From the NCBI GenBank assembly GCA_965261595.1, contig CBDHDG010000007.1:800001-864000 (forward strand): 64,000 nt of DNA. The letters run 5' to 3'. This document shows, piece after piece, positions 11,536-53,800 of the stretch. Position numbers and translations under genes: made by a program. Position 1 is the stretch's first letter. The number at the start of each line of letters is the position of its first letter. Under the pieces are notes generated by a model. It was not told where the DNA came from and did no database searches. It saw only the letters and a list, made by a program, of their open reading frames with translations. The stretch is from a bacterium. GTDB lineage: Bacteria; UBA8248; JACPRG01; G963555815.

Positions 11536-12939
11536 TCCCCCGCTCTAGGGTTTTGTTGGACACTCGATTGATCCATGATTCATGGAGAAAGGGGTGTCGC
11601 GATGAACGAACAAAAGCAAGAGGGGGCTTTGGCGGAGGGCGCCCGCAGGGCGAACGGAGCCAAGGCCCCAGGGCATCGCAGTGAGCGGGGTCGGTTCTCC
11701 TGCCAGCGCAAGCGGGAGGCGGTCCTGCGTCTTTTGCGGGGCGAGAGCCTGGAGACGCTCTGCCGCGAGTTGGGCACGACAGCGGCTCGGCTTTCCGCCT
11801 GGCGCGAGGCGTTCCTTCGCGCGGGCGAGGCGGCGCTCAAAGCCCGCCCGGCGGATGAGCGGGACGAGGAGAACGCCCGGCTCAAGGCCAAGGTGGGCGA
11901 ACTCACGATGGAGGGCGAGGTCCTGCGGGAGAAGATCGACCGCCTGGAGGCCGGCCGCCCTTTAGCCGGCAGGAGGTGGAGGCGATGAGTCAGGCCCGCT
12001 TCACCTCCACGGGCAGAGCCTACGGCCTGAAGCGGGTGTGCGCCCTTTGAGGCTTGGCGCGCTCCACGGTCTACGCGCAACGGCGGCGAGAGGCGGTCCC
12101 CGTTCATGAACGCCCCACGCCCAATAAGCGCGGCCCTGTGGGCCCGTGCACCGATGCGGAACTCCTCGGCCACATCCGGCAGGTCCTGGAGGACTCTCCC
12201 TTCCATGGCGAGGGCTACCGCAAGGTGTGGGCGAGGCTGCGCTTCGCGGGCATCCGCACCAGCAAGGAGCGGGTGCGTCGCCTGATGCGGGAGGCGGGGC
12301 TTCAGGCCCCCCACCGGGTGGGCAAACCCCGAGGTCCCAAGGCCCACAACGGGACCATCCGCACCGAGCGGCCCGACCGAATGTGGGGCACGCACATGAC
12401 GACGACGGTGACCACCGAGGAGGGGATGGCCTCGGTGTTCGTGGCGGTGGATCACTGCTCGGTGGACTGCGTGGGGATCCATGCGGCCAAGAGCGGCAAC
12501 CGCTTCGAGGCCCTGGAGCCGATCCGGCAGGGGGTCGCCGAGCGCTTCGCCGGCTTGGAGGCGGACGTCGCCGAGGGGCTTAAAGTTCGTCACGACCACG
12601 GCCCCGCCTATCTGTCCGATGACTTTCAGCGGGAGATCGCCTACCTGGGCATGACCAGTTCGCCCAGCTTCGTGCGGGCGCCCGAGGGAAATGGCTACTG
12701 TGAGTGGTTTATCCGCATCTTGAAGGAGAATCTCCTGTGGGTGCGCTCTTTCGCCACCGTAGAGGAACTGCGGTGGGCGCTGCTTGAGTTCAAGAACCTG
12801 TACAACCATCATTGGATTCTCGAGGGCTACGGCTACCGAACGCCGGCCCAGGCAAGGCAGGAAAAACTCGCTCAAGTTGCGGAGGCCGCATGAGGTCGAA
12901 TACCCTCACCAGAGTGTCCAATAACCCAGGGGCGGTCCA
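11536..12939 (+). mobile_element. IS3-family element A, copy 1 (1404 bp); orfB has TGA at 12048-12050 and D->H in WGTD
   Basis: Ends TCCCCCGCTC...GGGGCGGTCCA; TSD CCTT; orfA to 11988 overlapping the orfB ATG (ATGA); rve-type orfB. Confidence 0.95.
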
Positions 12940-24869: not shown

Positions 24870-25914
24870 GTGACACGGAAAGGAGAGGGGAGAATAAAGA
24901 CTCGCATAGCCGTTCTCGCCGCGTTTCTGTTCTTATCGGGAGGGCTGAGGGGGCAAACCGCCGCGGCCGGGGAGCCGTTCCTGCTCGACTGGATCATCTA
25001 CGGGAAGCACGCGCCCTTCTTCGTGGTCCAGGACAAAGGATTTTTCAAAAAGGCGGGGCTGGACGTCTCGTACAAGCGCGGATTCGGCTCCGGCGACACG
25101 ATCAAGAAGGTCGGGGCGAAGGCCGCCCGTCTCGGGTTCGCCGACGCCAGCTCGCTGGTCGAGCGCCAGGGCCAACGCCAACGTCCCGGTGAAAGAGGTC
25201 GCGATGATCCACGCCAAGTCTCTGGAGATCGTGGGCTTCCTCAAAGAGAAGGGCTACAAGACGCCCAAGGACCTGATCGGCCAAAGGTACGGCAATCCGC
25301 CGTACAACCGCTGTTGCTTCCCGGCCCTGGCGGGCGCCAACGGATTCGACGCCAAATCCATCAAGGAGATCGGGATGGAGGTCGGCTCACTCATCCCCTC
25401 GCTCCTGACCAACCGGGTCGATTTCATCGCCCTGTTCGCCACCGAGCTGCCGACCCTGCGCGCCAAAGCCGCCGACGTCGGCAAAAAGGTCGGCGCCTTC
25501 TATTTCTCCGACTGGGGCGTGGACGCCTATAACAACGGCATCGTCGTCCACGAGGACAACATCCGATCCGACCCGAAGTTCGTACGCGGCGCCGTCAAGG
25601 CCGTCATGGAAGGCTGGGCGTGGGCCCTCCTTAATGTGGATGAGACGGTGAAGAACTTTTTGAAATACGCGCCGGGCATGAGTGAGAAGCTGATCCGGGG
25701 GCATCTCAACGTCGCCATCGAGCACCTGTTCGATGATGGCGTCCGGCAGCACGGCCTGGGGTACATCGACCACGACAAAATGGGCGCGACCGCCGGGATC
25801 ATCACAAAATACTTGAAGCTGAAGAAGCGCATCCCGGCCGAAGACCTCTACACGAACCGGTTCCTTCCCCAGTGGGCCTCGATCAAGGCGGCCCTGGGCG
25901 ATCGGGCCAGGTAG
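24870..25914 (+). pseudogene. NMT1/THI5-family substrate-binding protein with frameshift near 25160
   Basis: LDWIIYGKHAPFF..GFFKKAGLDV..GFGSGD in one frame, continuing as 25189..25914 ending DLYTNRFLP. Confidence 0.75.
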
Positions 25915-26064: not shown

Positions 26065-26928
26065 TCATCCCCCGGCGGACATCGAGATCACGACGACGCC
26101 GATGAAGACCGTCAGCGCGCCCGCGGCCAGCCGCCAGGTGACCTGTTCGAGCTTCTGGATCAGAACCCTCGCTATCAGGATGGAAACAAGCGGGGAGGTG
26201 TAGATGAGGGGGGTCACGAAGCTGACGGTCCCGAGGCTCACGGCCTTGTAGAGGGTGATGAAGGCGGAAGCGTACCCGAGACCCCCCATGAGGAAGAACC
26301 CAATCCCCCGGAGGTCCCCGCCCCACCGGCTTTCGCGCGGAACCAGGGACACGCCCGCCAACAGGGCGATGAGCGCTCCCCCCGAGGAGATGGCGGTCCC
26401 GAGCAGGGGGTCCGGCAGAGACCGGATGCCCATTCGCATGAAGACGGGAATCAGGGCGAAGAAGACCGTTGGAATTAGACCGAAAACCGCCGCGGACGGG
26501 GATATCCGCGTCGCGGACCGATCGACCAGGATGCTGACGACCCCCCCGACGATGAAGACGGCGCCCACCGGGATGTGCCATGTGGGCCGCTCCCCCATGA
26601 AAACCACGCCGATGAGGATCACCAGAAAGGGCGTGACGGAGTTGAGCACCGCCGCCCGCGAGACGCCCAGCCTGCGGATGCTGAAGTAGTATAGGAGCCG
26701 CCCAGGCGCCAGGCCCGCCACTCCCACAAGGAAAAACCACCCGGCCGCGGGCCAAAGCGCGCCCGGCCCGCTCCCCCGAATCCCGATGACGATCCCCAGG
26801 GCCGTGGCCATGGAGATGGAATTGAAGATGGCCCCGGTGTAGGGCGTGGCGGTTCGAACGCCCATCCGGGTGAAGATGTCGGCCGCGCCGAAGCAGAACC
26901 CGCTCAAAAGCGCCCAGAAGACCGTCAT
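26065..26928 (-). CDS. DMT/EamA family transporter
   Basis: 287 aa, about 10 TMs, two EamA repeats (GVSRAAVL, GERP). Confidence 0.85.
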   Translation of the reverse strand: MTVFWALLSGFCFGAADIFTRMGVRTATPYTGAIFNSISMATALGIVIGIRGSGPGALWPAAGWFFLVGVAGLAPGRLLYYFSIRRLGVSRAAVLNSVTPFLVILIGVVFMGERPTWHIPVGAVFIVGGVVSILVDRSATRISPSAAVFGLIPTVFFALIPVFMRMGIRSLPDPLLGTAISSGGALIALLAGVSLVPRESRWGGDLRGIGFFLMGGLGYASAFITLYKAVSLGTVSFVTPLIYTSPLVSILIARVLIQKLEQVTWRLAAGALTVFIGVVVISMSAGG

Positions 26929-27189
26929 GTGGCGATCAAACCGTGCGCGTCCTTTTCAAAAAAATTCTCCCCGATCCCGCCCGCCCGCCGGTTCGCCGTT
27001 CCGGGGCTACCCTAGCATTTCTCGCCAACGCGTCGCCTGAATCCTGATTTGCCGAGGAATCACCCCTGGTGGTTCGTTTCCGCTGATGCTGACAGATGAT
27101 TCTTCAAGCGCTCGGTTTCCGGGCAGGGGCGGACCCTCCGCCCGTGGACAGGTCGCCGAAGCGAATGGTTCTGAACGGATTTAGTTATG

Positions 27190-27379
27190 GCCCAAAAAAA
27201 TACCGGGCGAGGACGTTCGGCCTAAGCCTACCAGCCCCCGCCCGGCGGGTTTTGTATTCGGTCCCGGCCTGATTCGGACGAGACCCAGGAGCGAGTCTAG
27301 GCTTCAGGACGCACACTCCCCGCTCCCGTAAGAGACGGGAATTCCGGCGGCGGCGGCTCTATCTCCACCGTTTCCGAAG
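27190..27379 (-). ncRNA. Putative structured DGR spacer RNA following the TR, ending in a T-run
   Basis: Segment directly 3' of the TR with short hairpins (e.g. TCCCGT..ACGGGA) and terminal CCGG-T7; position matches the spacer of DGR RNAs. Confidence 0.45.
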
Positions 27380-27506
27380 CCTTGGCGCAACGAAACGAAA
27401 TCCTGTTATTCCGGTTGTCTGGTTGCCTATTGTTGCGATTCGCTGCGCGGAAGTTCGTCGTATTGTCGTTGTTCCAGGAACCGCCGCGCAAAACGCGCCC
27501 GTTTTT
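27380..27506 (-). other. DGR template repeat (TR), FGE-sulfatase/CLec-type
   Basis: Translates as KNGRVLRGGSWNNDNTTNFRAANRNNRQPDNRNNRISFRCAK with 11 AAC/AAT codons, no gene upstream in frame, adjacent to the RT. Confidence 0.85.
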
Positions 27507-27509
27507 GAC

Positions 27510-28807
27510 TCACCCCTTTCCTGCAAAAACAGCGTCTCTCAAAACCCTCCCCCTGACCCGATACGCATCCGCGTGGGAGGCATGGGCGATCCAACTCATG
27601 ACCGACTGTCGGACGTCATCAAGCGTAATGGTTCCCTCCCGATAACCCGCTTGCAGCTTTCTCAGCCTTCGCCTCGCGTGGCGGACATTGGATTTTCGCA
27701 ACAGCCGGTGGGTCGGAAAAACGCGGTAGCCCAGGAAATCAATCCCGTCGCTCACGCGGTAGACGCGGCTTTTTCGGGGGTGCAGCCTGAGGCGAATCGC
27801 CCCCAGACGCTCCCGGCAGGCCGCCAGGGCGTCCCAAAGGGCGGGCTTGTCGTCCCCGAAGATGACAAAATCGTCCACGTACCGGACGTAGAACCTCCGC
27901 TCAAGGGTCTCCTTCACCCAGTGGTCGAACCCGGTCAGGTGAACGTTGGCGAAGAACTGGCTGGTCAGGTTGCCGATGGGGATGCCGTGGGGTCTCTCAA
28001 ACGGCGTGAACAGGTCGTCCCCGGAGAAGTAGAGACCGTCCTCGGAGCGCATCGATCCCAGGACCTTTCGGATCAGCCCGAGGGTTCTCTCGCACGCGAT
28101 CCGTTTCGCGACGGCCGCCATGAGGATCTCGTGGTCCATGCTCGGGAAATACCGCACGATGTCGCCCTTGAGGACGTACCGGTTCTTCCGGCAGAACGCC
28201 TGATACCGGTCCACGGCGGCGTGGGTCCCCTTTCCCCTCCGGCAGGCGTACGAGTCGCCTGGACGGCTACCGGGACCTGTGGATGACACCCTCTGAACAT
28301 CCCCGGAGAAGTAGAGACCGTCCTCGGAGCGCATCGATCCCAGGTCGGATCAGCCCGAGGGTTCTCTCGCACGCGATCCGTTTCGCGACGGCCGCCATGA
28401 TCTCGTGGTCCATGCTCGGGAAATACCGCACGATGTCGCCCTTGAGGACGTACCGGTTCTTCCGGCAGAACGCCTGATACCGGTCCACGGCGGCGTGGGT
28501 CCCCTTTCCCCTCCGGCAGGCGTACGAGTCATGGATGAAGGTCTTGTCGAAGATCGGCTTGATGACGTTGCACAAGGCATGGTGGACCACCCGGTCGCGG
28601 AATGACCCGGGGCTTGGTGTCCCGGACGGTGAACCGCGTGTAGCCGCCGGGTTGATAAGTTTGGTCAAGCAATTCCCTCTGAAGCCGGGGGATCTCGCGC
28701 TCCAATTCGAAAAGGAACCGCGCGGTGGAGGGTTTCGAGCGCTTGCCTTTGGCTGCCTTACGAGCCGCCAGAAGGAGGTTATCGAAAGAGCACACTTGAG
28801 AATAAAG
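27510..28807 (-). pseudogene. DGR-type reverse transcriptase, disrupted
   Basis: [61 protein letters not shown] and YVRYVDDF motifs; start removed by IS, small deletion, internal duplication. Confidence 0.9.
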
Positions 28808-30211
28808 TGGACCGCCCCTGGGTTATTGGACACTCGGGTGAGGGTATTCGACCTCATGCGGCCTCCGCAACTTGAGCGAGTTTTTCCTGCCTTGCCTGGG
28901 CCGGCGTTCGGTAGCCGTAGCCCTCGAGAATCCAATGATGGTTGTACAGGTTCTTGAACTCAAGCAGCGCCCACCGCAGTTCCTCTACGGTGGCGAAAGA
29001 GCGCACCCACAGGAGATTCTCCTTCAAGATGCGGATGAACCACTCACAGTAGCCATTTCCCTCGGGCGCCCGCACGAAGCTGGGCGAACTGGTCATGCCC
29101 AGGTAGGCGATCTCCCGCTGAAAGTCATCGGACAGATAGGCGGGGCCGTGGTCGTGACGAACTTTAAGCCCCTCGGCGACGTCCGCCTCCAAGCCGGCGA
29201 AGCGCTCGGCGACCCCCTGCCGGATCGGCTCCAGGGCCTCGAAGCGGTTGCCGCTCTTGGCCGCATGGATCCCCACGCAGTCCACCGAGCAGTGATCCAC
29301 CGCCACGAACACCGAGGCCATCCCCTCCTCGGTGGTCACCGTCGTCGTCATGTGCGTGCCCCACATTCGGTCGGGCCGCTCGGTGCGGATGGTCCCGTTG
29401 TGGGCCTTGGGACCTCGGGGTTTGCCCACCCGGTGAGGGGCCTGAAGCCCCGCCTCCCGCATCAGGCGACGCACCCGCTCCTTGCTGGTGCGGATGCCCG
29501 CGAAGCGCAGCCTCGCCCACACCTTGCGGTAGCCCTCGCCATGGAAGGGAGAGTCCTCCAGGACCTGCCGGATGTGGCCGAGGAGTTCCGCATCGGTGCA
29601 CGGGCCCACAGGGCCGCGCTTATTGGGCGTGGGGCGTTCATGAACGGGGACCGCCTCTCGCCGCCGTTGCGCGTAGACCGTGGAGCGCGCCAAGCCCCAA
29701 AGGGCGCACACCCGCTTCAGGCCGTAGGCTCTGCCCGTGGAGGTGAAGCGGGCCTGACTCATCGCCTCCACCTCCTGCCGGCTAAAGGGCGGCCGGCCTC
29801 CAGGCGGTCGATCTTCTCCCGCAGGACCTCGCCCTCCATCGTGAGTTCGCCCACCTTGGCCTTGAGCCGGGCGTTCTCCTCGGCCCGCTCATCCGCCGGG
29901 CGGGCTTTGAGCGCCGCCTCGCCCCCGCGAAGGAACGCCTCGCGCCAGGCGGAAAGCCGAGCCGCTGTCGTGCCCAACTCGCGGCAGAGCGTCTCCAGGC
30001 TCTCGCCCCGCAAAAGACGCAGGACCGCCTCCCGCTTGCGCTGGCAGGAGAACCGACCCCGCTCACTGCGATGCCCTGGGGCCTTGGCTCCGTTCGCCCT
30101 GCGGGCGCCCTCCGCCAAAGCCCCCTCTTGCTTTTGTTCGTTCATCGCGACACCCCTTTCTCCATGAATCATGGATCAATCGAGTGTCCAACAAAACCCT
30201 AGAGCGGGGGA
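28808..30211 (-). mobile_element. IS3-family element A, copy 2 (no TSD; WGTH allele)
   Basis: Same 1404-bp sequence; flanks AAAG and CAGC differ. Confidence 0.95.
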
Positions 30212-30392
30212 CAGCCGCTCAACTCACCGACTATACTGAAGATGCCCAGCCTGTAATCCAGGCAGAGATTCGCAAGCGGGGCATACAAAGGTATGAGGTT
30301 GAGCGAAAAAGAATTTCGAACACAATCCCTTCGCCAACACTGGCTGGCACCGGGACCCAAAATATCCAACGAAAACTTCCTATTTGGACCAC

Positions 30393-31652
30393 TGGAGTTG
30401 ACCCGGTTTGGTGGACACCTGATGATTTGGGGGTAAAGGAGGTGTTCACGATGCCACAGACTCACCCACGCTATCCAATGGAGTTCCGCTGCCAGATGGT
30501 AGAGTTGGTCCGGGCGGGACGCACGCCCGAGGCGCTGGCGCACGAGTTCGAGCCCTCGGCGCAGACGATCCGCACCTGGGCCCATCAAGCCGACGTTGAC
30601 GAGGGGCGTCGCAAAGACGGGCTCACGAGCGATGAGCGGGAGGAGTTGCGCCGACTTCGCCGCGAGAACCGACAGCTCCGCCAGGAGCGGGAGATCTTAG
30701 CAAAAGCCGCGGCCTGGTTTGCTCGGGATACCGATTCGATCCCGTCCGGATCTACGGGTTCGTGAGGGCGAACCAGGCCATGTATCGGACCGCCACCATG
30801 TGCCGGGTGCTGGGCGTCTCCTCCAGCGGCTACTACGCGTGGCGCAGGCGCGCGCCGTGTGCCCGCTCGTGTGCCGATCGGGCGCTCACCAAACGCATTC
30901 AGGCGATCCACGAGCGTTCTCGGGGGACTTACGGCGTGCCGCGCGTCCATGCCGAGTTGGAGGCTGAGGGAGTGCGTGTGGGCCGCAAGCGCGTCGCCAG
31001 GCTGATGCGTGGGGCGGGACTTGCGGGCGTCAGTCGGCGCAAGGGAGCGCGCACGACGCAGCGCCGGCAGGAGGCGCGGCCGGCCCCTGATCTGGTGGAC
31101 CGCAACTTCACGGCCGAGGCCCCCGACCGGCTGTGGGTGGCCGACATCACCTACGTTCCGACATGGGCGGGGTTTTTGTATCTGGCCGTGGCGCTCGATG
31201 CGTTCAGCCGGCGCATCGTGGGGTGGTCGATGGCCACACACCTGCGGGCCGAGTTGGTGCTCGACGCGCTCGACATGGCGCTGTATAAGCGCCGTCCCCG
31301 GGCCGTCATCCACCACTCCGACCAGGGCACGCAGTACACCTCGGTCGCCTTTGGGCAGCGCTGCCGCCAGGCGGGCGGGCGTCCCTCCATGGGTTCGGTC
31401 GGGGACTGCTACGACAACGCGCTGTGTGAGAGTTTTTTCGCCACGCTGGAGTGCGAGCTCCTCGCTCGCCACAGTTTCCGCACCCGGGCCGAGGCGCGCA
31501 TGGAGGTGTTCGGGTTCATCGAGGGCTTCTACAACCCGCATCGTCGGCACTCCTCCATCGACAACCTGTCACCCGTTAACTACGAAAGGAGACAACAACG
31601 CACACCCTGAAAACCCAAGTGCTTAACTCTCCACGAAACCGGGGTAAGTCCA
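30393..31652 (+). mobile_element. IS3-family element B (1260 bp): orfA 30451-30765, orfB to 31610
   Basis: TG..CA ends with imperfect IR; orfA ends ILAKAAAWF with an AAAAG slip-like site; orfB has WVADITY, HHSDQG and DNALCESFF. Confidence 0.92.
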
Positions 31653-34152: not shown

Positions 34153-34229
34153 GCGCCCTTAGCTCAATTGGATAGAGCGTCGGACTACGGATCCGAAGGT
34201 TGGAGGTTCGATTCCTCTAGGGCGTACCA
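34153..34229 (+). tRNA. tRNA-Arg(ACG)
   Basis: Cloverleaf; anticodon arm TCGGA-CTACGGA-TCCGA; GGTTCGATTCC; CCA end. Confidence 0.97.
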
Positions 34230-34244
34230 TTTCTGTTTGCGGAG

Positions 34245-34733
34245 TTGATCTCCCGCGTGCCTGACCCGGATCTTCGGTGGATGCGCCGCGCGGTCGATCT
34301 GGCCGAAGAGGCGGCCCGGGCGGAAGAGGTGCCCGTCGGGGCGGTGATCGTCCGGGACGGGAAGGTCGTCGCCGAGGCCCGAAACGAGGTCGAGGCGCTG
34401 GGAGATCCCACCGCGCACGCCGAGATGCTTGCGATCCGGCGGGCGGCGGGAGAACTCGGCCGGCCCCGGCTGGAGGGGGCGGCCCTGTATACAACGCTGG
34501 AGCCCTGCGCCATGTGCGCGGGGGCCGTCCTCCTCGCGCGGGTCGACCGGCTGGTGTTCGCGGCCCGGGACCCCAAGGGAGGATGCGCGGGCAGTCTGTA
34601 TGACCTGTTGACCGACCCGCGGTTCAATCACCGGGTCGTGGTGGCGAAGGGCCCGCTAGCCGAGGAGTCGGCCGGCCTGCTTCAAGCGTTCTTCCGGGCG
34701 CGCCGGAACGCGGCGGAGGAAACGCGCGGCTAG
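34245..34733 (+). CDS. tadA: tRNA adenosine(34) deaminase
   Basis: EVPVGAV, DPTAHAE, TLEPCAMC and FFRARR motifs. Confidence 0.93.
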   Translation: MISRVPDPDLRWMRRAVDLAEEAARAEEVPVGAVIVRDGKVVAEARNEVEALGDPTAHAEMLAIRRAAGELGRPRLEGAALYTTLEPCAMCAGAVLLARVDRLVFAARDPKGGCAGSLYDLLTDPRFNHRVVVAKGPLAEESAGLLQAFFRARRNAAEETRG

Positions 34734-34760
34734 CGGAGGAGGAAGACCGGAGCACCCGTC

Positions 34761-34850
<90 letters not shown>

Positions 34851-35103: not shown

Positions 35104-36783
35104 CCCGCATTTCCCATTTGGGTCATAAGATTCGACAGACCGAAAGGCGCTTTCTCATGTAAAATCAGCGTGTTGGCTTCCCCCTGCCACGTTCTCGCGG
35201 GGTAACCCTATGGGTGAAGCGAAAAAGACGGCATTGCGGGTCCATTTTAACCGTAGGCTGAGGCTTGACTTTCACGGAGCCAGAATCACTTCAGATACAG
35301 GATTGCTGGCCTGCCGGGAGTTGGATGATGCGCTGGGTTTGACGGTGAGAGCGCCAGCCCACTTGCAAGAGATCCGTCATGGCCGGAACGTCCAGCATGA
35401 GTTGGTGCCGCTATTGCGCCAGTCACTCTATAGTCGCCTGGCCGGGTACGAGGACACCAACGATGCTGAGCGATTGGCGAGAGACCCTGCTATGCAAGCC
35501 GTAGTTGGCCGGCGGGCACTTGAGAAGCAGGCGGCCAGTACCAACACATGGAGCCGGTTCGAGACTGAAGTTCTCTGCAGCGAGGAGAACCTGAGTAGGC
35601 TGAGGCAACTGAACACGGAATGGGTAGAGCGGGCCATGAGCCGCACGCCGCATCAGCGGGTCATCCTGGACATGGATAGCTCGGAAAGCCGGGTGCACGG
35701 ACAGCAGGAAGGGACTGCCTATAACGGTCACTTCGGTTCCCTCTGCTACCATCCCTTATTCTGCTTCAACCAGTTTGGGGACTGCGAGGGGGCGATGTTG
35801 CGTCCGGGCAACGTTCACAGCGCCGATGGGTGGCGAAAGTTGTTGGAGCCCATCACGGCCCGCTATGAGCACGCGGATGTTCGCCGTTCCTTTCGGGCCG
35901 ATGCCGCCTTTACGAGCCCCGAGGTCCATGAGTACTTGGAAGAGCGTGGCTTCCTCCACGCCATCCGGCTCCCTGCGAACGAAGTGCTCTACCCACGGAT
36001 CGACTTCCTGCTGACTCGCCCGGTCGGTCGCCCGCCCAAGAGACCCATCATCTTCTATCACGACTTCCGGTATCAGGCTGGAAGCTGGGACCACCCCCGA
36101 GGGGTGGTGGCGAAGGTGGAATGGCACTCAGGCGAACTCTTCCCTCGCGTCGGATTCATTGTCACGAACCTGACGGCTCGACCCGAGGGGGTCGTGCACT
36201 TCTACAACCAGCGAGGCACAGCCGAGCAATGGATCAAGGAAGGCAAGTACGCCCTGAACTGGACACGCCCTTCCTGTCACCGGTTCGTGTGCAACCAGGT
36301 GCGGCTCCTTCTCTTCGTCCTGGGGTACAACCTGGGCAATTTCCTGCGGAGGCTAGCCTTGCCCAGGGGGCTCAAGCACTGGTCGCTGCGAAGCCTCCAG
36401 GTCAAGCTCATCAAAATGGGCGGCCGGATTGTGCGCCATGTCCGGCACATCATCTTTCAGTTGGCCGAGGTAGCCGTATCCAGGGAGGTGTTCGCTCTCA
36501 TCCTGGACCGGATCAACCGATTGCGGCCCGTACCTGTCCAACCGCTCTCAGCGCAGTCCACCCGAGGACAAAATGGTGAATGTTCTGTCCCTTCCAGATG
36601 ACCTGCTGGGAAGGCTCGCCTACCCGGAGGGGTGGCATGATTTTCAATGGTGGACAACGCTCCGATTAGGGTTTCAGGCACCTGAAATGCGATTGACAGG
36701 TCCGGGAGAGAGGGGTCTAATTGACTTAAACAGCAACGAGTGGTCGGTACAGGCCTGTCCGGATTTGATATGGGAAATTCCGG
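35104..36783 (+). mobile_element. IS1380-family element; transposase 35210-36601
   Basis: Ends CCCGCATTTCCCAT and ATGGGAAATTCCGG; LDMDSS, YNGHF..YHPL, RADAAF and YNQRGTAEQWIKEGK motifs. Confidence 0.92.
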
Positions 36784-36870: not shown

Positions 36871-39292
36871 ATGGAGAGGGCGATGATCGGGCGAATTCTC
36901 TGGAAATACGTTCTTGGTTGCGTGCTGACGGCGGTGCTGGCGGTGGCGCCGATGGCCGGCTCCGCTGAGGCGGCAAAAAAGATCCGCGTCGCCATTGCCT
37001 TCAATGGGCCCATTAAAGACTTGGGTTGGGCCCAAGGGGGGTTCAACGGGGCCATGAAGCTCAAGGAAGACCCCGGCGTGGCGGAGGTCACATTCCATGA
37101 GAGAATCAAGAACGCTGACATCGAGCGGACGCTGCGGCGATGGGCGGTTGCGGGATACGACCTCATCATCGGACACAGTTTCGAGTTTGGCGAGCCTGCC
37201 TTAAAGGTGGCCCCCAGCTTCCCGAACAGCGTCTTCGCCGTGCCCTATTTTTTCAAGACGGGTGGGAACCCGAATATGGTGACCTACGGGCCTGGACCGC
37301 CCCTGGGTTATTGGACACTCGGGTGAGGGTATTCGACCTCATGCGGCCTCCGCAACTTGAGCGAGTTTTTCCTGCCTTGCCTGGGCCGGCGTTCGGTAGC
37401 CGTAGCCCTCGAGAATCCAATGATGGTTGTACAGGTTCTTGAACTCAAGCAGCGCCCACCGCAGTTCCTCTACGGTGGCGAAAGAGCGCACCCACAGGAG
37501 ATTCTCCTTCAAGATGCGGATGAACCACTCACAGTAGCCATTTCCCTCGGGCGCCCGCACGAAGCTGGGCGAACTGGTCATGCCCAGGTAGGCGATCTCC
37601 CGCTGAAAGTCATCGGACAGATAGGCGGGGCCGTGGTCGTGACGAACTTTAAGCCCCTCGGCGACATCCGCCTCCAAGCCGGCGAAGCGCTCGGCGACCC
37701 CCTGCCGGATCGGCTCCAGGGCCTCGAAGCGGTTGCCGCTCTTGGCCGCATGGATCCCCACGCAGTCCACCGAGCAGTGATCCACCGCCACGAACACCGA
37801 GGCCATCCCCTCCTCGGTGGTCACCGTCGTCGTCATGTCCGTGCCCCACATTCGGTCGGGCCGCTCGGTGCGGATGGTCCCGTTGTGGGCCTTGGGACCT
37901 CGGGGTTTGCCCACCCGGTGGGGGGCCTGAAGCCCCGCCTCCCGCATCAGGCGACGCACCCGCTCCTTGCTGGTGCGGATGCCCGCGAAGCGCAGCCTCG
38001 CCCACACCTTGCGGTAGCCCTCGCCATGGAAGGGAGAGTCCTCCAGGACCTGCCGGATGTGGCCGAGGAGTTCCGCATCGGTGCACGGGCCCACAGGGCC
38101 GCGCTTATTGGGCGTGGGGCGTTCATGAACGGGGACCGCCTCTCGCCGCCGTTGCGCGTAGACCGTGGAGCGCGCCAAGCCTCAAAGGGCGCACACCCGC
38201 TTCAGGCCGTAGGCTCTGCCCGTGGAGGTGAAGCGGGCCTGACTCATCGCCTCCACCTCCTGCCGGCTAAAGGGCGGCCGGCCTCCAGGCGGTCGATCTT
38301 CTCCCGCAGGACCTCGCCCTCCATCGTGAGTTCGCCCACCTTGGCCTTGAGCCGGGCGTTCTCCTCGGCCCGCTCATCCGCCGGGCGGGCTTTGAGCGCC
38401 GCCTCGCCCCCGCGAAGGAACGCCTCGCGCCAGGCGGAAAGCCGAGCCGCTGTCGTGCCCAACTCGCGGCAGAGCGTCTCCAGGCTCTCGCCCCGCAAAA
38501 GACGCAGGACCGCCTCCCGCTTGCGCTGGCAGGAGAACCGACCCCGCTCACTGCGATGCCCTGGGGCCTTGGCTCCGTTCGCCCTGCGGGCGCCCTCCGC
38601 CAAAGCCCCCTCTTGCTTTTGTTCGTTCATCGCGACACCCCTTTCTCCATGAATCATGGATCAATCGAGTGTCCAACAAAACCCTAGAGCGGGGGAGGCC
38701 CTCGCCCCACGAGGCGTTTTACTTGGCCGGCGCCCTGGCCGCCCTGATGAGCAAGTCCAAGAAGATCGGCAGCATTGGCGGGTTCCCCATTCCCCAACAG
38801 AACGCCGAACATAACGCCTACAAGCTGGGCGCCCGTGCGGTGGTCCCCAATATCAAGGTGGCGACCGTGTTTATCAGTTCCTGGTCGGATGTCTTCAAGG
38901 GCAAGGAGGCCGCCTTAGCTATGATGGACCAGGGCGTGGATGTGGTTGTTGGAACCGGCAGCCCGATGTTGTTCGGGGCCATCAAGGCCGCGGAGGAGAG
39001 GGGGGTTTACGCCATGGGGGACTTCCTGGACGTGAACAAATCCGCGCCTGATACGGTCATCACGAGTGTCGTTTACGGCTGGCACGCCCCCTTGAAGCAG
39101 ATCGTTCTGGGCATCAAGAAGGGAAAGGTCAAGCAGGTGAACCTGCTCGGCTTGCGGGATGGCGGGGCGACGTTGGCGCCGTTCAATCGCAAGGTTCCCC
39201 CCGAGGTCGCGCAGAAAGTCCGGGGATTGGAAAAAGACATCATGGCCGGCAAGATTAAGGTTCCTTGGTTGGCCAAGAAGTTGATCGACTAG
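36871..39292 (+). pseudogene. BMP-family ABC substrate-binding protein split by IS
   Basis: GPIKDLGW..GYDLIIGHSFEF before the IS; EAFYLAGALAA..KIGSIGG after it; TSD GGCC. Confidence 0.88.
37293..38696 (-). mobile_element. IS3-family element A, copy 3 (TGA in orfB; WGTD allele)
   Basis: 1404 bp; TSD GGCC. Confidence 0.95.
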
Positions 39293-39787: not shown

Positions 39788-42700
39788 ATTCAATGTCCTG
39801 AAGACGGTTCTGAGCTGGCTGGCCCGCCTAGTTCCTGCGCTAGAGGAGTGGTATCCCACGCTGCCGTCCGGACCAGTCGCGCTCCGGTTCCGGTTCCCGG
39901 ACATCGAGACATTCGGCCAGCGCGAGATTGACCTGGAGCGAACGGCGGGGGCACCTGCGGTAGCGGTGCAGGACAGAGAAATCGTGATCGACTTCCACCC
40001 GCGTTACCTGCAGAGTTTCCTTGCCCCAGGCAATCTCGGCGACCGCCTGATGATCGCAGCGATGGCACGAGGGCTGGAGGCGTTGTGCGGCAGCGAGCCT
40101 CTCGCAGAGTCAGCGATGGAGGTGTGGGTGCGAACCGTGGCGGGGTCGGATAACGACCGTTTCCTCAAGATGAGAACCAGCAGGACACCTAACGACCTCG
40201 TCTATGATGTTGCCGCGCTCCCGGAGTTGCGTCTGCCGATGCCGGAGGACCTGGCCCGGAGCCGGCTGGACCTGGCGCGGCTCGCGGGATACGAGGGCGA
40301 ACCGGGTCCGATCCCGTCCTCTCTAGCTGGGAACCTCCTCAATTCCGCGGTCGATGCGGTGTGGAAGCGCGTGGCAGAGCGGCTCGCGGGACTCTCCCGC
40401 GAGAGCACGGTCGAACGAGCGCTCCTGAACTACGTCGCCGCCTGTCAGGAGCACAGGGACTGGCTGCTCGCGATGGCGCCGCGGCTCGCTGTCTACGATG
40501 CGGCACAGATTATGGACGCCTCGACCGAGCGGATCACCTTGCGGGACATTGCCAGTCTCACGTCCCGGGTCATTGCGGAGATGGCGTTGTGTGCGTCTCC
40601 CTGCAGCGGCGGGGCCGCTTGCGCGGAGATGGACTTAGACCTTCCTGATCGCGGAGGTGTGGACGCTTGTAGAATGCGCCAACCAAAGCGATGCATTGCA
40701 CTACGGCCTCGCGGATCGGCCGCCGGTTATGCGCCCGAACGGCTCTGGACCGCCCCTGGGTTATTGGACACTCGGGTGAGGGTATTCGACCTCATGCGGC
40801 CTCCGCAACTTGAGCGAGTTTTTCCTGCCTTGCCTGGGCCGGCGTTCGGTAGCCGTAGCCCTCGAGAATCCAATGATGGTTGTACAGGTTCTTGAACTCA
40901 AGCAGCGCCCACCGCAGTTCCTCTACGGTGGCGAAAGAGCGCACCCACAGGAGATTCTCCTTCAAGATGCGGATGAACCACTCACAGTAGCCATTTCCCT
41001 CGGGCGCCCGCACGAAGCTGGGCGAACTGGTCATGCCCAGGTAGGCGATCTCCCGCTGAAAGTCATCGGACAGATAGGCGGGGCCGTGGTCGTGACGAAC
41101 TTTAAGCCCCTCGGCGACGTCCGCCTCCAAGCCGGCGAAGCGCTCGGCGACCCCCTGCCGGATCGGCTCCAGGGCCTCGAAGCGGTTGCCGCTCTTGGCC
41201 GCATGGATCCCCACGCAGTCCACCGAACAGTGATCCACCGCCACGAACACCGAGGCCATCCCCTCCTCGGTGGTCACCGTCGTCGTCATGTCCGTGCCCC
41301 ACATTCGGTCGGGCCGCTCGGTGCGGATGGTCCCGTTGTGGGCCTTGGGACCTCGGGGTTTGCCCACCCGGTGGGGGGCCTGAAGCCCCGCCTCCCGCAT
41401 CAGGCGACGCACCCGCTCCTTGCTGGTGCGGATGCCCGCGAAGCGCAGCCTCGCCCACACCTTGCGGTAGCCCTCGCCATGGAAGGGAGAGTCCTCCAGG
41501 ACCTGCCGGATGTGACCGAGGAGTTCCGCATCGGTGCACGGGCCCACAGGGCCGCGCTTATTGGGCGTGGGGCGTTCATGAACGGGGACCGCCTCTCGCC
41601 GCCGTTGCGCGTAGACCGTGGAGCGCGCCAAGCCCCAAAGGGCGCACACCCGCTTCAGGCCGTAGGCTCTGCCCGTGGAGGTGAAGCGGGCCTGACTCAT
41701 CGCCTCCACCTCCTGCCGGCTAAAGGGCGGCCGGCCTCCAGGCGGTCGATCTTCTCCCGCAGGACCTCGCCCTCCATCGTGAGTTCGCCCACCTTGGCCT
41801 TGAGCCGGGCGTTCTCCTCGTCCCGCTCATCCGCCGGGCGGGCTTTGAGCGCCGCCTCGCCCCCGCGAAGGAACGCCTCGCGCCAGGCGGAAAGCCGAGC
41901 CGCTGTCGTGCCCAACTCGCGGCAGAGCGTCTCCAGGCTCTCGCACCGCAAAAGACGCAGGACCGCCTCCCGCTTGCGCTGGCAGGAGAACCGACCCCGC
42001 TCACTGCGATGCCCTGGGGCCTTGGCTCCGTTCGCCCTACGGGCGCCCTCCGCCAAAGCCCCCTCTTGCTTTTGTTCGTTCATCGCGACACCCCTTTCTC
42101 CATGAATCATGGATCAATCGAGTGTCCAACAAAACCCTAGAGCGGGGGAGCTCCTTCGAATTCGATGTGTCGGCCCTACAGACGTCAGCCCCGATGATAG
42201 GCGAACGTTGGCGCCGGAAATTCCGCGATGCAGCGGAGCAACGTGGCGAGGATGAAGAAACACTGGGTCGAAAATTCCAGCATGTGTTCGCCGCCGAGTT
42301 CGGCCTCACGCCGGAACAGTACGGGGAGTTCGTCCTTCAAGCGGCGATTGAGGCTGTGGATGCCGGCGCGGCCCTTGTAAAGCTACGGAGAAGTAAAGTA
42401 GTGCGGTGGTTGCGGGACGTTGGCGCGGCGGATGCGGACCACGCGTTCGAGGCGCTTGTCCTCCGCCCCAGGGACCGGTGGAATGAGAGCCGGCCGGCGA
42501 ACGCGGAGGCAAGGGACTGGTATCCGTGGCGGTTCAACAGGCGTTTGTCGGTATTAAGGCGGCCTCTCATCCAATTGTCTAGGGAGGACGACCCGACCGT
42601 TATCTTGGCTTCCTCGATACTTGCCGATACGCTGGGTTATCTGGGGATGGCGGAAGTCGGCGGACGTCTCGAATCCCTCTTCGACAGTCCTGAAATGATT

Positions 42701-47205: not shown

Positions 47206-48249
47206 TGGACCGCCCCTGGGTTATTGGACACTCGGGTGAGGGTATTCGACCTCATGCGGCCTCCGCAACTTGAGCGAGTTTTTCCTGCCTTGCCTGGGCC
47301 GGCGTTCGGTAGCCGTAGCCCTCGAGAATCCAATGATGGTTATACAGGTTCTTGAACTCAAGCAGCGCCCACCGCAGTTCCTCTATGGTGGCGAAAGAGC
47401 GCACCCACAGGAGATTCTCCTTCAAGATGCGGATGAACCACTCACAGTAGCCATTTCCCTCGGGCGCCCGCACGAAGCTGGGCGAACTGGTCATGCCCAG
47501 GTAGGCGATCTCCCGCTGAAAGTCATCGGACAGATAGGCGGGGCCGTGGTCGTGACGAACTTTAAGCCCCTCGGCGACGTCCGCCTCCAAGCCGGCGAAG
47601 CGCTCGGCGACCCCCTGCCGGATCGGCTCCAGGGCCTCGAAGCGGTTGCCGCTCTTGGCCGCATGGATCCCCACGCAGTCCACCGAGCAGTGATCCACCG
47701 CCACGAACACCGAGGCCATCCCCTCCTCGGTGGTCACCGTCGTCGTCATGTGCGTGCCCCACATTCGGTCGGGCCGCTCGGTGCGGATGGTCCCGTTGTG
47801 GGCCTTGGGACCTCGGGGTTTGCCCACCCGGTGGGGGGCCTGAAGCCCCGCCTCCCGCATCAGGCGACGCACCCGCTCCTTGCTGGTGCGGATGCCCGCG
47901 AAGCGCAGCCTCGCCCACACCTTGCGGTAGCCCTCGCCATGGAAGGGAGAGTCCTCCAGGACCTGCCGGATGTGGCCGAGGAGTTCCGCATCGGTGCACG
48001 GGCCCACAGGGCCGCGCTTATTGGGCGTGGGGCGTCCATGAACGGGGACCGCCTCTCGCCGCCGTTGCGCGTAGACCGTGGAGCGCGCCAAGCCCCAAAG
48101 GGCGCACACCCGCTTCAGGCCGTAGGCTCTGCCCGTGGAGGTGAAGCGGGCCTGACTCATCGCCTCCACCTCCTGCCGGCTAAAGGGCGGCCGGCCTCCA
48201 GGCGGTCGATCTTCTCCCGCAGGACCTCGCCCTCCATCGTGAGTTCGCC
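47206..48249 (-). mobile_element. IS3-family element A, copy 5 (truncated in orfA)
   Basis: Right end and orfB present; cut by copy 6. Confidence 0.92.
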
Positions 48250-49653
48250 TGGACCGCCCCTGGGTTATTGGACACTCGGGTGAGGGTATTCGACCTCATG
48301 CGGCCTCCGCAACTTGAGCGAGTTTTTCCTGCCTTGCCTGGGCCGGCGTTCGGTAGCCGTAGCCCTCGAGAATCCAATGATGGTTGTACAGGTTCTTGAA
48401 CTCAAGCAGCGCCCACCGCAGTTCCTCTACGGTGGCGAAAGAGCGCACCCACAGGAGATTCTCCTTCAAGATGCGGATGAACCACTCACAGTAGCCATTT
48501 CCCTCGGGCGCCCGCACGAAGCTGGGCGAACTGGTCATGCCCAGGTAGGCGATCTCCCGCTGAAAGTCATCGGACAGATAGGCGGGGCCGTGGTCGTGAC
48601 GAACTTTAAGCCCCTCGGCGACGTCCGCCTCCAAGCCGGCGAAGCGCTCGGCGACCCCCTGCCGGATCGGCTCCAGGGCCTCGAAGCGGTTGCCGCTCTT
48701 GGCCGCATGGATCCCCACGCAGTCCACCGAGCAGTGATCCACCGCCACGAACACCGAGGCCATCCCCTCCTCGGTGGTCACCGTCGTCGTCATGTGCGTG
48801 CCCCACATTCGGTCGGGCCGCTCGGTGCGGATGGTCCCGTTGTGGGCCTTGGGACCTCGGGGTTTGCCCACCCGGTGGGGGGCCTGAAGCCCCGCCTCCC
48901 GCATCAGGCGACGCACCCGCTCCTTGCTGGTGCGGATGCCCGCGAAGCGCAGCCTCGCCCACACCTTGCGGTAGCCCTCGCCATGGAAGGGAGAGTCCTC
49001 CAGGACCTGCCGGATGTGGCCGAGGAGTTCCGCATCGGTGCACGGGCCCACAGGGCCGCGCTTATGGGGCGTGGGGCGTTCATGAACGGGGACCGCCTCT
49101 CGCCGCCGTTGCGCGTAGACCGTGGAGCGCGCCAAGCCCCAAAGGGCGCACACCCGCTTCAGGCCGTAGGCTCTGTCCGTGGAGGTGAAGCGGGCCTGAC
49201 TCATCGCCTCCACCTCCTGCCGGCTAAAGGGCGGCCGGCCTCCAGGCGGTCGATCTTCTCCCGCAGGACCTCGCCCTCCATCGTGAGTTCGCCCACCTTG
49301 GCCTTGAGCCGGGCGTTCTCCTCGTCCCGCTCATCCGCCGGGCGGGCTTTGAGCGCCGCCTCGCCCCCGCGAAGGAACGCCTCGCGCCAGGCGGAAAGCC
49401 GAGCCGCTGTCGTGCCCAACTCGCGGCAGAGCGTCTCCAGGCTCTCGCCCCGCAAAAGACGCAGGACCGCCTCCCGCTTGCGCTGGCAGGAGAACCGACC
49501 CCGCTCACTGCGATGCCCTGGGGCCTTGGCTCCGTTCGCCCTACGGGCGCCCTCCGCCAAAGCCCCCTCTTGCTTTTGTTCGTTCATCGCGACACCCCTT
49601 TCTCCATGAATCATGGATCAATCGAGTGTCCAACAAAACCCTAGAGCGGGGGA
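48250..49653 (-). mobile_element. IS3-family element A, copy 6 (WGTH allele)
   Basis: 1404 bp; CGCC on both sides. Confidence 0.95.
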
Positions 49654-49796: not shown

Positions 49797-50030
49797 ATGA
49801 CAACGTCAGAGAAGAAGGTTGTGAATCATCAACTCATCGCCCTACAGCTAGCCTAGGCCCTGGGCAACGTATCGGAGGCCTGCCGGCGGCGGGGGGCATG
49901 AGCCGCAGCTAGTTCTACGAGTACAAGCGCCGCTTTCAGACCCACGGGGTGGAGGGCCTCAGAGACCTGCTCCCGATACACATCTCCCAGCCCTTCACCA
50001 TCCCGCCCGAGGTGGTGAAGTCGAACCTGA
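49797..50030 (+). mobile_element. IS481-family transposase N-terminal remnant
   Basis: LQLA*ALGNVSEACRRRG / MSRS*FYEYKRRFQTHGVEGL HTH with stops and a frameshift. Confidence 0.7.
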
Positions 50031-50046
50031 TGCCGGAGACAAAGAG

Positions 50047-50625
50047 ATGGAATCTTTCGAACAGCATCTCAAAGAATTTGTTGAATTTTCTACCAGCGCC
50101 CTTCAAACAGAGGACGAGTTTCTCCGCAAAGCCTTCTCGCAATATGTGAACACCCAACATTACGGGGATTGGCCCCATGGGATCACGATTCTATTTGAGA
50201 CGACATTGGTCTATTTCATTTTTCGGGAATTGCTTTCAAGAAAATTTCCTTTGGAAGTACTTTGGGAGCACGAATACCCGTCAAATCGCAGTTTGAAGGC
50301 CGACCTAGCATTGAGAGATATCCGGGGAGGCATGTTAAAAGAGCAGGCATTTCTAGAATTCAAGATTTGGAAATCCGATACAACCGAAGAAATCTCAACT
50401 GACATCAAGAAATTGAAAGATAATCTTGGTGATTACAAAGAAGCCCCAACCCAAGCGTTTGTTTTTATTTTTTGGTGGGAGCCCGAGCAGAATGAAGAAG
50501 ACAATTTGAAATGGCTCGAGAATGAATTGGGGATCGATTTATTCAAAAGTTCAAGTTTTCGGACGAAATGGAAGGGGTCGAGTTATCGCATGGCGACTCT
50601 AGCCCTTTTTGAAGTTCGGCTCTAA
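50047..50625 (+). CDS. Low-GC hypothetical protein, PD-(D/E)xK-like
   Basis: EHEYP..KADLAL..FLEFK..DIKKL pattern; AT-rich codon usage. Confidence 0.55.
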   Translation: MESFEQHLKEFVEFSTSALQTEDEFLRKAFSQYVNTQHYGDWPHGITILFETTLVYFIFRELLSRKFPLEVLWEHEYPSNRSLKADLALRDIRGGMLKEQAFLEFKIWKSDTTEEISTDIKKLKDNLGDYKEAPTQAFVFIFWWEPEQNEEDNLKWLENELGIDLFKSSSFRTKWKGSSYRMATLALFEVRL

Positions 50626-51180
50626 ATCAAGCGGTGAGCTTCTTGTATTCTAGTACTTCGGTGTTCATGATGCGCTTAAGAGTATCGTAGATATGTACAG
50701 ATTGGGTATTTGCCTGACACTGCTGCCTCAATGGCGGACCTTGTTGCCGATAGTACGCATGGGCAGACCCCCAGAAAATCGAGGTTGACACGGGCTTGGG
50801 GATTTGCTACAAGGAGGGTCTGTGAGGTCCTCTCTTGTAGCAACGCCCCGGGGTTCCCTCGGGGCTTCCACCCTTTGAAGTTCCATATACCACATGTAGT
50901 GGGTCGGATTCAATTTTCGAGGGACCACCATATCTTGTGTCTTACTGCGTCAAGGGCATAATCACGATTTATTCAAAAGTTCAAGTTTTCGGACGAAATG
51001 GAAGGGGTCGAGTTATCGCATGGCGACTCTAGCCCTTTTTGAAGTTCGGCTCTAAATCAAGCGGTGAGCTTCTTGTATTCTAGTACTTCGGTGTTCATGA
51101 TGCGCTTAAGAGTATCGTAGATATGTACAGATTGGGTATTTGCCTGACACTGCTGCCTCAATGGCGGACCTTGTTGCCGA
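50535..51180. repeat. 216-bp direct repeat (50535-50750 = 50965-51180) around a 214-bp insert
   Basis: Identical by eye at offset 430. Confidence 0.9.
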
Positions 51181-51181
51181 G

Positions 51182-53789
51182 TTACGCCGCACCCGATCTC
51201 CAACCCTCACCCAGAATATCCACCGCGATGCTCCCTGCAATACGCTCCGCAGCCTCCTGCACCGAATCCCGCGCCAGATGGGCGTACCGGGCCGTGGTCT
51301 CGACCTGGCTGTGGCCCAACAGCTTTCCGATCATCGGCAAGCTCTCGCCCAGCGCCAGTGCACGGCTGGCATACGAATGACGTAGATCATGAATTCGAAA
51401 GTCCTCCAAGCCGGCCCGCGCCCGGATGACCTGCCAGGCCTGATCCACGTTGCTCATATGCGTGCCCGGCTTCCGGCCGGGAATGACACACGGGTTGGCC
51501 TCCCCCGCTCTAGGGTTTTGTTGGACACTCGATTGATCCATGATTCATGGAGAAAGGGGTGTCGCGATGAACGAACAAAAGCAAGAGGGGGCTTTGGCGG
51601 AGGGCGCCCGCAGGGCGAACGGAGCCAAGGCCCCAGGGCATCGCAGTGAGCGGGGTCGGTTCTCCTGCCAGCGCAAGCGGGAGGCGGTCCTGCGTCTTTT
51701 GCGGGGCGAGAGCCTGGAGACGCTCTGCCGCGAGTTGGGCACGACAGCGGCTCGGCTTTCCGCCTGGCGCGAGGCGTTCCTTCGCGGGGGCGAGGCGGCG
51801 CTCAAAGCCCGCCCGGCGGATGAGCGGGACGAGGAGAACGCCCGGCTCAAGGCCAAGGTGGGCGAACTCACGATGGAGGGCGAGGTCCTGCGGGAGAAGA
51901 TCGACCGCCTGGAGGCCGGCCGCCCTTTAGCCGGCAGGAGGTGGAGGCGATGAGTCAGGCCCGCTTCACCTCCACGGGCAGAGCCTACGGCCTGAAGCGG
52001 GTGTGCGCCCTTTGGGGCTTGGCGCGCTCCACGGTCTACGCGCAACGGCGGCGAGAGGCGGTCCCCGTTCATGAACGCCCCACGCCCAATAAGCGCGGCC
52101 CTGTGGGCCCGTGCACCGATGCGGAACTCCTCGGCCACATCCGGCAGGTCCTGGAGGACTCTCCCTTCCATGGCGAGGGCTACCGCAAGGTGTGGGCGAG
52201 GCTGCGCTTCGCGGGCATCCGCACCAGCAAGGAGCGGGTGCGTCGCCTGATGCGGGAGGCGGGGCTTCAGGCCCCCCACCGGGTGGGCAAACCCCGAGGT
52301 CCCAAGGCCCACAACGGGACCATCCGCACCGAGCGGCCCGACCGAATGTGGGGCACGGACATGACGACGACGGTGACCACCGAGGAGGGGATGGCCTCGG
52401 TGTTCGTGGCGGTGGATCACTGCTCGGTGGACTGCGTGGGGATCCATGCGGCCAAGAGCGGCAACCGCTTCGAGGCCCTGGAGCCGATCCGGCAGGGGGT
52501 CGCCGAGCGCTTCGCCGGCTTGGAGGCGGATGTCGCCGAGGGGCTTAAAGTTCGTCACGACCACGGCCCCGCCTATCTGTCCGATGACTTTCAGCGGGAG
52601 ATCGCCTACCTGGGCATGACCAGTTCGCCCAGCTTCGTGCGGGCGCCCGAGGGAAATGGCTACTGTGAGTGGTTTATCCGCATCTTGAAGGAGAATCTCC
52701 TGTGGGTGCGCTCTTTCGCCACCGTAGAGGAACTGCGGTGGGCGCTGCTTGAGTTCAAGAACCTGTACAACCATCATTGGATTCTCGAGGGCTACGGCTA
52801 CCGAACGCCGGCCCAGGCAAGGCAGGAAAAACTCGCTCAAGTTGCGGAGGCCGCATGAGGTCGAATACCCTCACCCGAGTGTCCAATAACCCAGGGGCGG
52901 TCCAGGCCGGTTCTCGCGGCAGACCGGAAAGAAGCCTCACCGCCGAGGGCGACAATGGAACCACCCGTGCGCCCGTCTTGGCGTCGGGCAGTCTCAATTC
53001 GTTCTGATCCAGCGCCACGTCCTCCCACCGAAGGGTCAGGATCTCGTTCTTCCGGCATCCGGTCAGCATAAGCAGACGGAGAGCGATCACCGCGGATGCC
53101 GACGCGCCGCCCCGGGTCTCGACCTCATCCAGCACCTTTCCCAGGCGGGTGAACTCGCCATCGGTCAGAAACCTTTCCCGCTTGCGCTCGGGAAACCTGA
53201 CCGCCAACCGGCAGGGGTTGCATCCCTCCGGAACGAGCCCCCAGCTCTCGGCCAGCCTGTACATCAGCGACAGGGTGCGGACCACCATGTTCGCCATCGC
53301 AGGGGTCTCGTAGAGTTCGTCATGCAGCTCCATGACCCGTGCGCGGCTGACCGCCTCCAGCGGTAGCTGACCGAGGGCGGGCACGATATGACGATTCACC
53401 ACCGTGCGGGTCGACTTCATGGTGCTCGGCTTGTAGCGCACCGCCACGTGCTCTTCGAGAAACCGCCTCGCAAGCTGGCCCACTGTCGGCCCACCGGACA
53501 GCTTCACCGCCATGGGCTCGGGCACCGGCTCCTCGCCGGCCTTGACCCGGGCGATGATCAGAGCCGCCCGCTGACGTGCCTGCTCCGCGCCGAGCACCCC
53601 GTGCCGGCCCACCGTGACCCGCTTCGGTCCCCCCGGTCCCCGGGCCTGGGCGACATAGACCTTGCCGCCCGCGGGATAGACCCGCACCCCGAAGCCGGTG
53701 AGCTCGTGATCCCAGAACACCGTGTCTTTTTCTACCTTCAGCTTCTCGACCGTGCGGTTCGAGAGCGTCTTGTATTCCAGCTTCGCCAT
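51182..53789 (-). pseudogene. Tyrosine integrase (arm-binding N-terminal domain) split by IS
   Basis: LTGCRKNEIL before the IS; HDLRHSYAS..LLGH..TARY after it; TSD GGCC. Confidence 0.9.
51501..52904 (+). mobile_element. IS3-family element A, copy 7 (orfB open, WGTD)
   Basis: 1404 bp; TSD GGCC. Confidence 0.95.
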
Positions 53790-53800
53790 GTCATCCAGCC

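Follow-up and report, generated by a model that had tools for sequence, protein, structure and literature searches.

A probable remnant of a diversity-generating retroelement: a reverse transcriptase pseudogene and an orphan template repeat beside an IS3-family element

A reverse transcriptase (RT) gene that is followed at once by an adenine-rich template repeat (TR), with neither a VR-bearing target gene nor an avd gene in the surrounding 64 kb of bacterial DNA (the stretch analyzed here, hereafter the window), raises the question of whether the locus is a working diversity-generating retroelement (DGR) with an unusual layout and remote targets, or the residue of a more conventional one. The evidence set out below makes it very probable that what remains here is the 3' half, in a decayed state, of a chromosomal target(VR)-bAvd-RT-TR element, and that an IS-associated rearrangement deprived it of its upstream half. 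The features on which this reading is based are collected in Table 1.

Table 1. Features of the DGR locus and of the IS3-family elements in the window, with their positions and the basis of each assignment.
Feature	Position	Strand	Basis and remarks
Structured stretch 3' of the TR, possible cis-acting DGR RNA flank (tentative)	27285..27380	-	Fold prediction
TR, adenine-rich, in the RT frame, encoding the C-terminal ~40 residues of a CLec/FGE-sulfatase fold	27381..27503	-	AAY excess, Pfam, targets of relatives
DGR RT pseudogene, codon 7 to stop	27510..28807	-	RVT_1; tblastn with P0001 runs through three successive frames; closest proteins are intact 351-aa alleles
RT residues 104-351 and stop, holding GIPIGNLTSQ and YVDD	27510..28256	-	248/248 residues identical to P0001
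43-nt filler at the duplication junction	28257..28299	-	tblastn/pairwise alignment
First (5') copy of the internal tandem duplication, residues 104-183, with 3-nt and 5-nt deletions	28300..28530	-	Tandem Repeats Finder, repeat families D1, D3, D4, pairwise alignment
RT residues 169-183	ends at 28300	-	tblastn with P0001
5-nt deletion, second frame shift	adjoining 28345	-	tblastn with P0001
RT residues ~80-166	~28600 to 28345	-	E94K substitution; 3-nt deletion of codon 148
SAAPF (residues 76-80) missing, frame shift	adjoining 28601	-	~14-nt deletion, size inferred from protein alignment and DNA reading
RT residues 7-75	28601..28807	-	68/69 residues identical to P0001 (tblastn)
IS3-family element (orfA 29759-30172, orfB 28854-29771), abutting RT codon 7, no target-site duplication	28808..30211	-	Pfam HTH_Tnp_1, rve/HTH_21
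1404-bp IS3-family copies, 6 full and 1 partial	11536-12939, 28808-30211, 37293-38696, 40746-42149, 47206-48249 (partial), 48250-49653, 51501-52904		99.4-99.7% identity
Second, unrelated IS3-family element	30394..31652	+	NCBIfam transpos_IS3, 350 bits; plasmid IS3 homology 30391-31593; ends approximate, read from sequence

The RT gene lies on the minus strand, matches the Pfam family RVT_1 and terminates in a TGA at 27512-27510; its translation contains the motifs GIPIGNLTSQ and YVDD, just as a first-pass annotation of the window, made from the letters alone, had read them, together with the stop at 27510. The same annotation assigned the enzyme to DGRs, and this assignment is sustained, as against group II introns and retrons, by structure matches, by identity to the Bordetella brt protein and by NCBIfam scores. 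The best match of an intact allele of the protein (P0123, 351 aa) among solved structures is the 328-aa chain 8ub7_A (E = 5.9e-61), and the best match to a structure of a group II intron RT has an E-value of 1.8e-19. The table of matches names 8ub7_A simply 'Reverse transcriptase', and we take the 8ub7 series of PDB entries to be Bordetella bRT-Avd-RNA complexes. Between P0123 and the brt protein of Bordetella phage BPP-1, identity is 38.9% in an alignment that covers 96% of the former. With the NCBIfam models, the same protein, which is only 351 aa long, attains 152 bits with the group II intron RT/maturase family (TIGR04416), whose cutoff is 300, and 40 bits with the retron RT family (NF038233), whose cutoff is 235. 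The JGI label 'retron-type reverse transcriptase' carried by homologs is a generic name. For comparison of the genomic setting, we took as relatives the 79 closest loci in reference genomes, in which the RT is 44-57% identical to that of the window, and searched them for A-biased repeat pairs, i.e. those with at least 80% of the mismatches on adenines of one copy. Such a TR/VR pair is present in 54 of the 79 loci and, along with the Brt-like sequence and the I/LGxxxSQ and YxDD motifs, it places the RT in the DGR clade. A distant blastn search of a plasmid collection with the RT-TR stretch returned no match.

Directly past the RT stop, and in the same frame, the DNA reads VKNGRVLRGGSWNNDNTTNFRAANRNNRQPDNRNNRISFRCAK. 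AAY (AAC or AAT) occupies 11 of the 43 codons of this stretch and constitutes 2.0% of the trinucleotides of the window (binomial P = 7e-10), while adenine makes up 29% of its letters against 19% in the window. The encoded peptide matches columns 217-255 of the 255 columns of the Pfam FGE-sulfatase model with an E-value of 4.5e-4, a match too weak to reach the curated cutoff. When the DGR targets of related loci were aligned to the window by tblastn, 18 of the 36 matched only positions 27369-27509, and each did so by its last ~40 residues, i.e. by its VR. Together, these observations identify the stretch as a template repeat and not as a gene remnant. The proposal that the adenine-rich, non-genic stretch with its 11 AAY codons right after the RT stop is a TR therefore stands, in both coordinates and description, though, for want of a VR to align with it, the boundaries given in Table 1 are approximate. 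A search of longer proteins with the 43-aa TR peptide gave 99 matches, which are, in other DGRs, either small ORFs encoded by the TR or proteins in which the RT is read through into the TR. None of the 99 sits on a contig of 1,383,029, 851,602 or 614,800 bp, the lengths of the contigs with this RT cluster, a weak indication that no cognate VR is present there. Several related DGRs combine RVT_1 and FGE-sulfatase in one public protein of 389-520 aa (P0135, P0140, P0146, P0149, P0156, P0183 and others), in which the reading frame of the RT extends into the TR; a single TGA parts the same-frame RT and TR of the window (27503-27512).

The surroundings of the TR may also preserve a structured RNA. 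The predicted fold of 27180-27520 is stabler than those of shuffled sequences (z = -3.6), and an 11-bp predicted pairing of 27507-27517, in the RT stop region, with about 27287-27297, ~95 nt past the TR, encloses the repeat. This fold recalls the flanking duplex described as the 'cPRT Stop duplex' in bioRxiv 10.1101/2023.10.23.563531. Across 29 elements, the energies of TR-flank duplexes differ weakly between cognate pairs (median -41.1 kcal/mol) and non-cognate pairs (-38.4 kcal/mol; one-sided P = 0.037), and the value for the duplex of the window is unremarkable among them. A search of the whole window with Rfam detected two tRNAs and nothing else. A tadA-like cytidine/adenosine deaminase gene (34245-34733) is situated between tRNA-Arg(ACG) and tRNA-Ser(CGA), the three together spanning 34153-34850.

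The gene order of the relatives bears directly on the first part of the question. Of the 54 loci with an A-biased pair, 46 have the TR on the downstream side of the RT, separated from the RT match by a median of 50 nt, and the other 8 have it on the upstream side. In 44 of the 46 downstream-TR loci a VR is found upstream of the RT, with a median of 444 nt from the VR end to the RT start; in 15 of the 46 an additional VR follows the TR, and in 2 the sole detected VR is at that place. The gap between VR and RT contains an ORF of at least 50 aa in 28 loci. We tested 25 of these 28 ORFs, leaving out three of 50-65 aa, and recovered 24 as bAvd proteins above the Pfam cutoff and one as a GIY-YIG protein. 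Domain searches with 12 of the 42 target ORFs showed that all 12 end in an FGE-sulfatase domain, that 7 additionally contain nSTAND1, NACHT or KAP NTPase domains, and that one has a caspase domain. The first-pass annotation had considered the order RT-then-TR noteworthy against the Bordetella prototype; with 46 of 54 related loci arranged alike, and architectures A2 (RT-TR) and B2 (avd-RT-TR) already listed in PMC5758913, this emphasis is not warranted.

A distinct arrangement is seen in a sub-group of 13 relatives (L004, L018, L024, L031, L032, L035, L040, L047, L050, L063, L069, L071 and L073), in which only ~80-250 nt without an ORF separate the VR end from the RT, and the TR follows ~380-590 nt after the RT. 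In these loci an accessory gene may lie between the RT and the TR.

The state of the RT gene bears on the second part of the question. Relative to the intact 351-aa alleles in public data (the cluster of P0001, i.e. P0001, P0123, P0127, P0128 and P0130), the remnant in the window lacks codons 1-6 and begins with codon 7 precisely at the IS boundary at 28808. It had been described as short of only these few N-terminal codons, but four more lesions are apparent within it, and the gene is a pseudogene (Table 1). The largest is a tandem duplication of residues 104-183, ~280 nt in length, which Tandem Repeats Finder reports at 28018-28530 with a period of 274, 1.8 copies and 96% matches. On pairwise alignment, the two copies of the duplicated segment show no differences other than the 3-nt and 5-nt deletions, and blastn-short located no source within the window for the 43-nt filler at their junction. 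With codons 1-6 lost and four further lesions present, there is no complete RT reading frame, and hence no complete translatable RT gene, at the locus. The longest ORF, of 274 aa (27510-28334), lacks residues 1-103 and the conserved block contained in them, and its product would presumably be inactive. The lesions are confined to the 5' ~530 nt of the remnant, and the 3' 744 nt encode protein 100% identical to the intact alleles. To judge from its sequence, the element cannot be capable of mutagenic retrohoming on its own, because its RT gene is wrecked by a frameshifting deletion, two small deletions and the tandem duplication.

An assembly artefact has to be considered: the gene might be damaged in the cell at the IS junction only, and assembly would then have created the duplication and the small deletions. 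The internal lesions all fall in the 5' part of the gene, beside a 1.4-kb repeat that is present at least 6 times in the window, and the two duplicate copies differ by no substitutions. The contrast between this damaged 5' part and the unchanged 3' part lends some plausibility to the former being chimeric or misassembled. Against an artefact, the six full IS copies differ at 15 sites, all of them substitutions, and none has an internal indel; the flanking genes are near-identical to public homologs, with a UbiD-family gene 99% identical to P0230; and consensus errors do not typically take the form of a 14-nt deletion or of a 43-nt filler that has no local source. Even if the duplication and the small deletions were discounted, the RT would be left without a start, a promoter, an avd gene and a target. 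We hence consider an artefact very unlikely, and since the six IS copies align without internal indels, the RT lesions are probably real and not assembly noise. Another public assembly (on a 73,085-bp contig) contains this RT in two pieces of 53 aa (P0124) and 300 aa (P0129), broken at about codon 47, and this break differs from those in the window. The differently split allele implies that this RT was inactivated, or misassembled, more than once.

The element at 28808-30211 has the hallmarks of the IS3 family, namely two overlapping ORFs, inverted repeats in the form of 19-nt arms (pair I6), and short duplications around its other copies; its NCBIfam transpos_IS3 score of 150.7 bits is just below the cutoff of 160. 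The five other full copies in the window are bordered by 4-bp duplications (GGCC, GGCC, GCTC, AAGG and CGCC), whereas the copy that abuts the RT is flanked by AAAG and CAGC and has none, in agreement with the earlier observation on the missing target-site duplication. Such flanks point to a later rearrangement associated with the IS. The presence of six full and one partial near-identical copies, with 4-bp duplications and with a nested insertion, suggests that expansion of this IS is ongoing in the genome. In the nested case one copy of the 1404-bp element lies within another, with the junction at 48249/48250. Elsewhere in the window, copies of the element interrupt two genes, one for a Bmp/PnrA-like binding protein (36871-39292) and one for a tyrosine integrase (51182-53804). 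The second IS3-family element listed in Table 1 has no further copy in the window, and a distant blastn search of the plasmid collection with both elements recovered only IS3 elements that are 66-70% identical.

A second mobile-element family in the window comprises three DDE_Tnp_1_4 transposase genes (35210-36601, 58721-60084 and 60496-61899), of which that at 58721-60084 is split into ORFs 58721-59131 and 59146-60084. An NMT1/THI5-like binding-protein gene at 24870-25914 is represented by two overlapping ORFs (24870-25532 and 25189-25914) and is apparently a frameshifted pseudogene, with no IS as the cause. An EamA transporter gene occupies 26065-26928. The GC content falls to 45.6% at 50001-51000, compared to 62% in the whole window, beside a 192-aa ORF (50047-50625) without a Pfam match.

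Neither of the components that accompany the RT in its relatives could be recovered from the window. An adenine-tolerant ungapped scan of the 64 kb for a VR found none, its best other match having 5 mismatches at 26 non-A positions; a masked TR pattern with up to 3 mismatches allowed matched the TR alone; and a permissive gapped blastn search, the same as finds the pairs in the relatives, returned nothing besides the TR. Likewise, no bAvd or 23S_rRNA_IVP match was detected by Pfam among the 51 ORFs of the window, and tblastn with 24 bAvd proteins of relatives gave a best E-value of 0.028. These three VR scans and two avd searches bear out the initial impression that the window holds no VR-bearing gene and no avd. 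Upstream of the RT remnant, the 28808-30211 IS is followed in turn by 182 unassigned bp, the second IS3-family element and ~1.1 kb, and neither Pfam searches of the ORFs nor tblastn revealed DGR-related coding potential beyond the IS.

The side of the RT that is cut by the IS is the very side on which bAvd and the target are encoded in the relatives. Comparison thereby lends support to the suggestion that the IS took away the target, since the VR and bAvd of the relatives directly precede the RT, and the IS-associated truncation accounts for the lack of a target in the window. The earlier presence of an avd gene and a target upstream of the RT is in this case deduced from relatives that are only 44-57% identical in the RT, and their removal by the IS event would follow from the same comparison. 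In working relatives, the RT and Avd copy the TR RNA to cDNA with misincorporation opposite adenines, and this cDNA takes the place of the VR at the 3' end of a gene for a ligand-binding domain of the CLec/FGE-sulfatase fold, which in this clade is often fused to STAND or KAP NTPases. The simplest history of the locus in the window would begin with insertion of the IS at RT codon 6/7; a second step, either recombination of this copy with another or an adjacent deletion, would then have removed codons 1-6 of the RT along with its promoter, the avd gene and the target. The lesions within the RT (the ~14-nt deletion, two small deletions and the ~280-nt duplication) could have arisen after this rearrangement, or before it.

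The condition of the TR allows for another scenario, in which the local RT is dead and an intact paralogous DGR elsewhere in the same genome, with its own RT and Avd, makes use of the TR RNA and its flanks in trans, so that the locus would be one degenerate member of a multi-locus DGR family. The TR is indeed undecayed beside a wrecked RT, its structured flank is retained, and intact 351-aa alleles exist in public assemblies. Moreover, PMC10907252 reports on a bacterium in which one complete DGR locus coexists with several degenerate ones per class, under the shaping influence of transposons. However, nothing links the intact alleles to the genome of the window, a TR without a VR has nothing local to diversify, the IS replaces the promoter side of the RT-TR unit, and recent decay equally predicts an undecayed TR. 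We therefore judge use of the TR in trans to be very unlikely, and the more specific notion that the TR and its structured flanks are kept intact as an orphan template, with which a sister DGR rewrites remote CLec-domain genes, to be highly improbable. If it were true, fragmentation by the IS would have converted what was a compact cassette into a dispersed hypermutation system with multiple templates.

That the locus is instead a working DGR with an unusual RT-then-TR layout, diversifying remote targets elsewhere in the genome, is very unlikely: the TR with its 11 AAY codons looks pristine, the 3' 248 RT codons are identical to those of the intact alleles, remote targets are documented (45 of 372 DGRs in PMC5758913 have non-adjacent ones), and 25 of the 79 related loci show no TR/VR pair within the flanks taken (though many of these are short contigs), but there is no complete RT reading frame, the longest ORF is devoid of the N-terminal conserved block, there is no avd in the window, and the layout is the norm of the clade, with the target adjacent and upstream in 44 of the 46 downstream-TR relatives.

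The locus can further be compared with known systems. The DGR of Bordetella phage BPP-1, the prototype of these elements, has the order mtd-avd-TR-brt. The locus in the window resembles it in the RT family, with the SQ and YxDD motifs common to both, and in an adenine-rich TR that encodes the end of a C-type-lectin-like fold. It differs in that the RT precedes the TR, in the absence of avd, target and VR from the window, in the pseudogene state of the RT, and in its setting, a chromosome-like, IS-rich segment as opposed to a phage. With the B2 and A2 architectures of Wu et al. 2018 (PMC5758913) it shares the core order of RT then TR, the relatives of its RT being of the target-bAvd-RT-TR form; the avd and target parts are missing in the window, and whereas the reference set of that paper consists of putatively functional DGRs, the locus here is not one. 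According to PMC10907252, DGRs of clade 5D diversify CLec sensors fused to STAND NTPases. The 7 of 12 tested targets of relatives with an nSTAND1, NACHT or KAP NTPase domain ahead of the FGE-sulfatase/CLec domain are of comparable design, but no target survives in the window. The same paper reports 'degenerate' DGR loci in Thiohalocapsa PB-PSB1, with the machinery missing or pseudogenized and with transposons shaping the loci.

The locus thus belongs, in degenerate form, to a DGR architecture that is well described, within a genome rich in IS elements, and there is nothing new in its gene order. We recommend that it be annotated as a DGR remnant, comprising an RT pseudogene and an orphan TR, and neither as a working DGR nor as a new architecture. 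Its significance beyond annotation is small. It does serve as a reminder that the Bordetella gene order is not a general rule, and that a TR placed after the RT is the default in the RT clade to which the window's enzyme belongs. The locus also provides a clean, datable snapshot of the death of a DGR during IS expansion: public assemblies contain the same RT in intact form, with 248 residues unchanged, and comparison with these alleles would reveal what the IS-associated deletion took.
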